From the IMG/VR virus record IMGVR_UViG_3300021255_003843, positions 1 to 64,000 of that record: a DNA stretch of 64,000 nucleotides. One strand, written 5' to 3'. Of the stretch, positions 17,497-17,960 are shown piece after piece. The position numbers and the translations under genes are program-made. Position 1 is the stretch's first letter; each line of letters opens with the position of its first letter. Below the pieces are notes generated by a model that saw nothing but the letters and a program-made list of their open reading frames with translations, was not told the origin of the DNA and did not search any database. Origin of the DNA: a virus. Its lineage: Duplodnaviria > Caudoviricetes.

Positions 17497-17960
17497 TGCC
17501 GCTCCTGTTAAAGCGGAAACGTTGTTGATATTATATTGATCTGTTTAAAGCAGGCGGTTCAGGGAAAGAGTGTCGCCGCCTGCTTTGAACGATTGGTATA
17601 AATATGAGCAGGTGTAGGACGGGCGTTGTTGTCGCGAGCCATTGCAAAGTGGCGGTGCCTTCATCAGTCCCAAATCTGCCTTATATACATGTTGCTTGCA
17701 GAATCCGCTCGCTGGTTAACAGTGGCAAAATGTTAGGTCCACCCTTCTGGGCCTCAAATGAAGTGGTTCGCTTTTCGTGTCACGCTAAACACTTAAATTA
17801 CATACGCCGCATGATAAACGCGTACCGCAATCTGCGCATAAGCATCTGTAGCCTATTGGCCGTCCAAGGATGGCGTTCTAGGCACGTCAATTGAGCGTTT
17901 GAGTTACGTTCTTTTGCAGCAAACAACAATGTTTCCGCTTTAACAGGAGCGGTATTTTTT
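17497..17960 (+). ncRNA. Large structured RNA closed by a 31-bp terminal stem
   Basis: 17497-17527 pairs with 17924-17954 (two G-U pairs); internal 15-bp stem 17543-17590; other hairpins; U tract at the 3' end. Confidence 0.75.

Follow-up and report, generated by a model that had tools for sequence, protein, structure and literature searches.

A gene for an acidic protein of about 210 amino acids and a large RNA encoded directly 3' of it travel together in phages and prophages whose hosts are gut and rumen Bacillota, and about a third of the sequence clusters of this RNA carry a periodic, strand-specific track of C-purine dinucleotides at a spacing of 7 or 8 nt. The protein-plus-RNA module is uncatalogued, with no match in Rfam, Pfam or PHROG for the RNA or the protein. 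The window, i.e. the whole stretch of 64,000 nt that was analysed (positions 1 to 64,000 of the IMG/VR record IMGVR_UViG_3300021255_003843, a 105-kb phage genome), contains this gene and RNA. A sequence-only reading of the window had described pyrimidine-purine (YR) dinucleotides recurring every 7 nt at 17767-17850 and had proposed a single-stranded track bound one heptamer per subunit by an oligomer or filament of the upstream protein, with the RNA as a possible scaffold or ruler. The rhythm of the window taken alone is no more than chance; its best reading is a weak, partly decayed local copy of a family-wide U-U-C-purine track.

The rhythmic stretch lies in a gene-free gap of 497 nt between the gene for the 208-aa protein (16864-17490, + strand) and a pncA-nadE-nadD-pncB operon. 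The RNA of this gap, like all its features given below on the + strand, is closed by a helix of 31 bp. The 5' arm (17497-17527) begins 7 nt past the stop codon and pairs with the 3' arm (17924-17954), which is followed by a U run; both arms were obtained in the minimum free energy (MFE) and centroid folds and by RNAalifold, the 5' arm with a compensatory pair. An MFE of -197.8 kcal/mol (z -8.8) was calculated for the + strand versus -150.8 kcal/mol for the other strand, and RNAalifold, on three sequences only, revealed ten pairs with compensatory changes. Closing helix, fold and homologous loci bear out the earlier assumption that the stretch is part of a real large RNA. In the gathering scan of the window with Rfam only three tRNAs were detected, and a scan of 17300-18100 with Rfam 15 at E<=10 yielded only chance microRNA and S15 matches. 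A 7-bp hairpin at 17735-17754, with a stem ending in CCA and then a C-rich loop, marks the start of the track. It was invariant or covarying in loci L043, L046, L047, L050, L134, L135 and L165; however, the CCA-stem hairpin was present in only 10 of 115 RNAs, thus it is clade-specific and unusable as a family-wide anchor. Directly past the track follows a conserved 3' hairpin (17851-17883; RNAalifold pairs 367-399) with AU to UA and CG to AU changes. The T run past the 3' arm is not a family feature, being found for 10 of 99 distinct stems. A long hairpin at 17531-17601, evident from alignments and fold, occurs in this genome only and is missing in the two nearest relatives, L046 and L043. It represents a 70-nt perfect-stem insertion, lacking in L046 despite a 95 % identical partner protein. 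In the middle of the closing helix, the A-U pair 17515/17936 of the window is replaced by a C-C mismatch in L043-L045, with both sides changed (L043:1665-2085).

About 140 loci were fetched from metagenomes, IMG/VR and bacterial genomes, mostly from Oscillospiraceae, Faecalibacterium and other Clostridia. The helix count was limited to the 132 loci in which the gene was intact and the downstream sequence long enough; 119 of these had a closing helix with a score of at least 18, while shuffled controls reached a maximum of 17. The helices have a length of 20-38 bp, enclose 311-604 nt (median 401 nt) and differ in sequence between clades. Their 5' arm begins at a median of 13 nt past the stop codon of the partner gene. 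Scoring with Watson-Crick pairs only left 151 G:T mismatches versus 36 A:C mismatches, therefore the + strand is the folding strand. Within about 99 distinct family helices, a G in the 5' arm was opposite a U in the 3' arm 126 times and the reverse was observed 25 times, a polarity that may partly reflect sequence relatedness. The gene upstream and the RNA are a pair also where the downstream genes differ. In L004 a 92 % identical pncA has no such RNA ahead of it, whereas L043-L045 contain a 61 % identical homologue of the 208-aa protein, then the same RNA, then a primase-helicase gene; the order of RNA and primase-helicase gene was also present in L048 and L050. On the basis of these arrangements, the RNA belongs with the upstream gene and not with the downstream NAD operon. 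The operon itself (17988-21201) is a complete Preiss-Handler NAD salvage operon in a phage. L004 and L134 are located on one IMG/VR contig, with pncA about 20 kb from the partner-gene copy of that contig. Neither the RNA nor two family proteins had a match among 50,697 GenBank phages (blastn, tblastn), a helix arm and a conserved block were not found in IMG/VR by exact-pattern scans, and no description of the gene and RNA module was found in the literature.

The sequence-only reading had made its case depend on the periodicity being present in homologous loci. For this check, the 115 distinct RNAs were grouped into 47 blastn clusters, and a C-purine (C-R) periodicity of 7-8 nt was highly significant across the RNA family. 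Over the whole RNAs, the YR autocorrelation at lag 7 had a mean z of 0.01 with a few extreme values, thus the YR signal is local, not global. The YR statistic with period 7 and one slip, the only test set beforehand, was applied to the 46 other clusters; four had p<=0.01, while periods of 5, 6, 8 and 9 gave none. L147 and L171 reached 12 of 12 positions on this statistic. Ten successive 7-nt units with C-purine at positions 5-6 are present in L171, eleven in L147. Chains of C-R at a spacing of 7 or 8 nt, a statistic framed after L147 and L171 had been seen, were significant at p<=0.01 in 10 of the 47 clusters (binomial 3.7e-11) and at p<=0.05 in 16, the clusters being not fully independent, e.g., L147 and L171 share motifs. 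A repeat run on the + strand gave 9 and 17 clusters, respectively, and the margin of the statistic holds after correcting for 22 tests. With spacings of 5/6, 6/7, 8/9 and 9/10 nt, 1, 2, 1 and 0 clusters were significant at p<=0.01. The controls for the 7/8 spacing were two clusters at p<=0.01 and four at p<=0.05 for the reverse complement, none and one for the upstream coding sequence, none and two for the downstream DNA. For other dinucleotide classes, the numbers of clusters at p<=0.01 were GR 0, AY 1 and UR 1. Pair-distance histograms of TTCR are confounded by sequence relatedness. About two thirds of the clusters had no significant strict 7/8 chain. Among these is the largest cluster with 43 Faecalibacterium-type RNAs; its conserved C-R sites are 3-9 nt apart, and its central region is C-rich and unpaired in the consensus fold.

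The units of the track have the profile A-U-U-C-R-Y, with G nearly absent between the motifs. Tracts consist of 5-14 units in 45-104 nt and mostly lie at fractions of 0.4-0.75 along the RNA (range 0.31-0.85). They contain more C (0.25-0.42) than G (0.08-0.25). Their predicted unpaired probability was 0.43 versus 0.35 for the rest of the RNA, and folding of the isolated 81-nt tracts of L147 and L171 yielded just -6.4 and -4.8 kcal/mol. A reading of the units as T-loops (U-U-C-R-A) was dropped, as position +2 was an A in only 25 % of the units. L055 is the one cluster that has both a strong tract and sequence variation; its C-R columns were 0.93 identical versus 0.72 for the spacers. Three nearly identical tandem units in L147 would suit neutral heptanucleotide microsatellites generated by replication slippage; most clusters, however, have retained C-R while the spacers diverged. 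Alternatively, the element may function as an origin or priming site in the form of single-stranded DNA, which would also be stabilised by G:T wobble pairs. The closest relatives of the window have SSAP, SSB and primase-helicase genes as neighbours, with the module between the SSB and primase-helicase genes, but the module was also found far from replication genes. Furthermore, the signal is strand-specific, and the element begins 2-20 nt past the stop codon on the coding strand. We consider slippage or a single-stranded DNA element very unlikely.

A C-rich, G-poor and unstructured tract with YC dinucleotides also resembles a Rho loading (rut-like) site. The length of the tracts, their excess of C over G and their poor structure agree with the about 60 nt or more of unstructured RNA for such a site, every unit has U-C directly ahead of its purine, and chains of YC with a 7/8 spacing reached significance in 4 of 47 clusters (p<=0.01). 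Each Rho protomer, however, occupies 10 nt (10.1101/2022.08.29.505764), and between neighbouring YC dinucleotides a spacer of 7 nt or more is required, i.e. a period of at least 9 (PMC5314796). Here the period is 7-8 instead of YC about 10 nt apart, there are up to 14 units in place of six Rho sites, and the fold surrounding the tract is closed, conserved and linked to a single protein gene. A function in Rho loading is thus highly improbable.

In the window itself the picture is far less clear. All eleven dinucleotides that had been listed were confirmed, yet the lattice drawn from them had skipped one position (17797/98), so that it contains YR at 10 of 12 positions with one slip of +1. At 17765-17792 (+ strand), C-purine occupies positions 5-6 of four strict heptads (ggUUCGc, uuUUCGu, gucaCGc and uaaaCAc), the first two of which fit the family unit. 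The degenerate continuation at 17793-17850 (+ strand) comprises an 8-nt unit without C-R and then seven heptads with CG, UG, CG, CG, UG, AA and UG in this order. The autocorrelation that had been suggested as a check was weak: the YR signal at lag 7 had a z of 1.88 with an uncorrected p of 0.05, and p rose to 0.28 over lags 2-14. Against dinucleotide shuffles of the 84 nt, a period of 7 with one slip had P=0.032, which became P=0.32 over periods 4-12 and four dinucleotide classes. The stretch has a YR density of 0.34 versus 0.25 overall, and 26 of 9131 windows of 84 nt in the 64 kb were equally good. A scan of the whole RNA with the period-7 YR statistic resulted in p=0.15, and the strict C-R chain at 7/8 spacing comprised four units only (p=0.49). 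In L046 and L043, lattice positions were no better conserved than spacers. A motif at fixed spacing, above shuffles and on one strand, was thus found for the family, but not for the window alone. The statement that the stretch lacks obvious strong stems was correct: the 84 nt folded worse than shuffled sequences (-11.5 versus -14.8 kcal/mol, z=+1.27) and are the least structured part of the large RNA. A weak hairpin was predicted between 17763-17778 and 17811-17828 (z=-1.69).

The stretch is nevertheless probably homologous to the family tract. The track of the window starts 11 nt past the hairpin at 17735-17754, and the tract of L134 likewise follows its copy of this hairpin; both share sequence around the third and fourth units. 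The two initial units have the family motif U-U-C-G. The composition (C 0.27, G 0.19) of the degenerate continuation at 17793-17850 and its unpaired probability of 0.47 versus 0.30 for the rest of the RNA are as in the family tracts. Tracts were also present in the nearest clusters beyond the window's own, with 10 units in L048 (p=0.002), 7 in L050 (p=0.04) and 6 in L134 (p=0.054). The homology is based on these observations, and a track of periodic motifs at 7-8 nt is, as the earlier reading had anticipated, a family feature at the homologous place. The pattern of the window may instead be a coincidence of a YR-rich and CG-rich stretch, the functional track having been lost, or the stretch being the loop and arms of the weak hairpin. 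The P values of about 0.15-0.5 after look-elsewhere effects, the 26 equally good windows and the lattice conserved no better than its spacers are in line with this, and within the predicted hairpin CG17776/77 lies opposite UG17812/13 as a paired segment, by which pairing could mirror part of the pattern. The homologous position with the sequence shared with L134, the family motif in the first units and the family-like composition and lack of structure count against coincidence; we regard it as rather unlikely.

The partner protein belongs to a large family. A profile search with an HMM built from three sequences detected 524 cluster representatives at E<=1e-3, nearly all of 200-220 aa, and the family comprises more than 500 clusters at 50 % identity. 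Its carriers are phages and prophages in gut and rumen Bacillota, among them Faecalibacterium and Oscillospiraceae. One copy in Faecalibacterium prausnitzii ATCC 27768 (L101:722-3139) follows two orphan genes (374 and 114 aa) in a region between aminoglycoside acetyltransferase and TraX genes, with no obvious phage genes near. The 208-aa protein was without a family match in Pfam, PHROG or PADLOC, and none of 30 family members tested had one in Pfam (E<=0.1) and PHROG. The AF2 model of the 208-aa protein (pLDDT 92) has two helix / beta-hairpin / helix repeats. Foldseek of the model against PDB and BFVD gave no match at E<=0.001, the PDB sequence search nothing under E 0.1, and the protein atlas search hypothetical clusters only. 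A wide structural search had as top match 3kdq_A, a Corynebacterium protein of unknown function (Z 10.7). Thus neither Foldseek nor the wide structural search recognised a known RNA-binding fold in the family. The family is acidic, with a median pI of 5.2 and a net charge of about -7, and does not fit the profile of an RNA-coating protein. The conserved residues include K4, F7, R8, Y9, H37, D48, E49, E76, Y141, Y143, D170 and S173; the N-terminal helix possibly offers a local basic or aromatic surface.

RNA-repair enzymes were the commonest interpretable neighbours of the module, and tRNA genes or arrays were also common. Of the 47 clusters, 15 have RNA-repair genes and 14 have tRNAs within flanks of 2.5 kb. 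In L173, a gene for a 752-aa fusion of P-loop kinase, metallophosphatase and Rnl1-type RNA ligase (L173:246-2504) overlaps the start codon of the partner gene; genes like this fusion occur in 19 loci of 9 RNA clusters. L054 carries another RNA ligase, and other loci have Metallophos with GP88 downstream. The phage of the window encodes an RNA ligase (PF09414; 10179-10688), three tRNAs (11884-12471) and a HAD_SAK_2 gene (21489-22463); these genes, HAD_SAK_2 being a 'Swiss Army Knife RNA repair' domain, flank the module at distances of up to about 7 kb and suggest an RNA-repair/tRNA region. No defence family was detected by PADLOC. In L143 and L157 the module is inside arrays of 8-11 tRNA genes, and L157 also contains a 'drum' RNA (RF02958) at 4208-4317.

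In the proposed mechanism, the RNA would form the 3' part of the transcript that also encodes the protein of about 210 aa. A helix of 20-38 bp would clamp the ends of the approximately 400-nt RNA, and this structured frame would hold out, in the middle of the RNA, a single-stranded, C-rich and G-poor tract in which U-U-C-purine forms the centre of each of 5-14 units 7 or 8 nt long. The evenly spaced motifs may serve as a platform on which one single-strand-binding ligand sits in multiple copies or as an oligomer, with one ligand unit per site. We propose such a multi-site platform tentatively, at a little short of even chances, on the sequence-level evidence of the module pairing, the strand-specific periodic track and the homologous position of the window tract. 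The partner gene is the only constant neighbour of the RNA, thus its protein is the most economical candidate ligand and the favoured one, although this assignment is itself somewhat doubtful: the acidic character and the absence of a recognised RNA-binding fold count against it. The track of the family may be real and have another ligand, i.e. the tract would titrate or recruit a different single-strand-binding factor. Candidates are cold-shock-domain proteins, with a footprint of about 6-7 nt per protein, an RNase or ribotoxin with the RNA as decoy, or an RNA-repair enzyme. The conserved H, D and E residues of the acidic partner protein look like an active or metal site rather than an RNA-coating surface. 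The frequent neighbours, i.e. the kinase-phosphatase-Rnl1 fusion, other RNA ligases, Metallophos, GP88 and tRNA arrays, as well as the RNA ligase, tRNAs and HAD_SAK_2 gene in the phage of the window, also fit such a factor. None of these genes, however, accompanies the RNA as constantly as the partner gene, and a ligand other than the partner protein appears unlikely.

Several known systems share single traits with the module. In the trp leader RNA of Bacillus bound by TRAP and in the hut mRNA bound by HutP, a short motif is repeated at fixed spacing, with one repeat per subunit of an oligomer; the triplets of HutP sites are four bases apart, giving a period of 7. The comparison with TRAP in the sequence-only reading was apt for the logic of periodic repeats in single-stranded RNA, but not for motif, period and protein fold. 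The motif is U-U-C-purine in contrast to (G/U)AG or UAG, the period is 7-8 with 5-14 units, and the track is part of a closed 400-nt RNA behind a gene and not of a regulated leader. The A-U-U-C-R-Y units do not provide the nine to eleven (G/U)AG triplets, 2-3 nt apart, of a TRAP target. The partner protein, whose fold of helical hairpins and beta-hairpins differs from that of TRAP (MtrB) and HutP, is not known as oligomeric, and the 30 family members had no Pfam family at E<=0.1. The sponge RNAs CsrB and RsmZ hold several copies of one protein on many GGA copies, which are irregularly spaced in hairpin loops. They are, as the RNA described here, dedicated non-coding RNAs displaying many copies of a short motif, but the motifs here are evenly spaced in a tract predicted to be poorly structured and no CsrA-like protein is involved. 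The likeness to TRAP, HutP and CsrB is an analogy, not membership. ROOL and GOLLD (RF03087, RF01998) are likewise large, intricately folded RNAs of unknown function that are common in phages and near tRNA genes. Their covariance models had no match in the gathering scan of the window, in the scan of 17300-18100 at E<=10 and in the family representatives; neither is known to have an obligate partner gene or a heptad track. Bacterial Y RNAs, the ends of which form a long helix, are paired with Ro (Rsr) in RtcB RNA-repair operons. An end-closing helix, one paired protein gene and adjoining RNA-repair enzymes are common to both systems, but our RNA is three to four times larger and its partner is a helical protein of 210 aa, not a Ro ring. 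Y-RNA models had no match in any Rfam scan, and the TROVE domain was absent among the neighbours examined. RAGATH-27 (RF03100; threshold 76.1 bits) was not detected anywhere in the 105-kb genome at E<=10, nor by Rfam in 46 related loci; taken together, the Rfam scans covered representatives of 45 of the 47 RNA clusters, again with no RAGATH-27. RAGATH goes unmentioned in the main text of Weinberg et al. 2017 (PMC5737381). In phage T5 (AY543070), searched without a positive control, neither the family profile nor PF20935 had a match, and PF20935 was also absent from the genome of the window.

The frequent neighbours, i.e. RNA ligases, a kinase-phosphatase-ligase fusion and tRNA arrays, suggest a connection with RNA damage and its repair in the conflict of phage and host, a field in which few RNA components are known. 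As a speculative and rather improbable extension, gene and RNA may constitute an undescribed phage ribonucleoprotein: the frame would present a U-U-C-purine 'ruler' of 7-8 nt units, on which the partner protein or a tRNA/RNA-repair factor assembles one copy per unit. It would work alongside the tRNA arrays and the kinase-phosphatase-ligase repair enzymes, e.g., as a decoy for, or a sensor of, host ribonucleases cleaving tRNA loops. Should the track serve as a binding platform, it would be part of a widespread protein-plus-RNA module without a catalogued RNA or protein family. Compared with other large orphan RNAs, this one would offer a simple, testable feature: both the number of units and the C-purine positions are accessible to mutation, with binding stoichiometry as a measurable readout.
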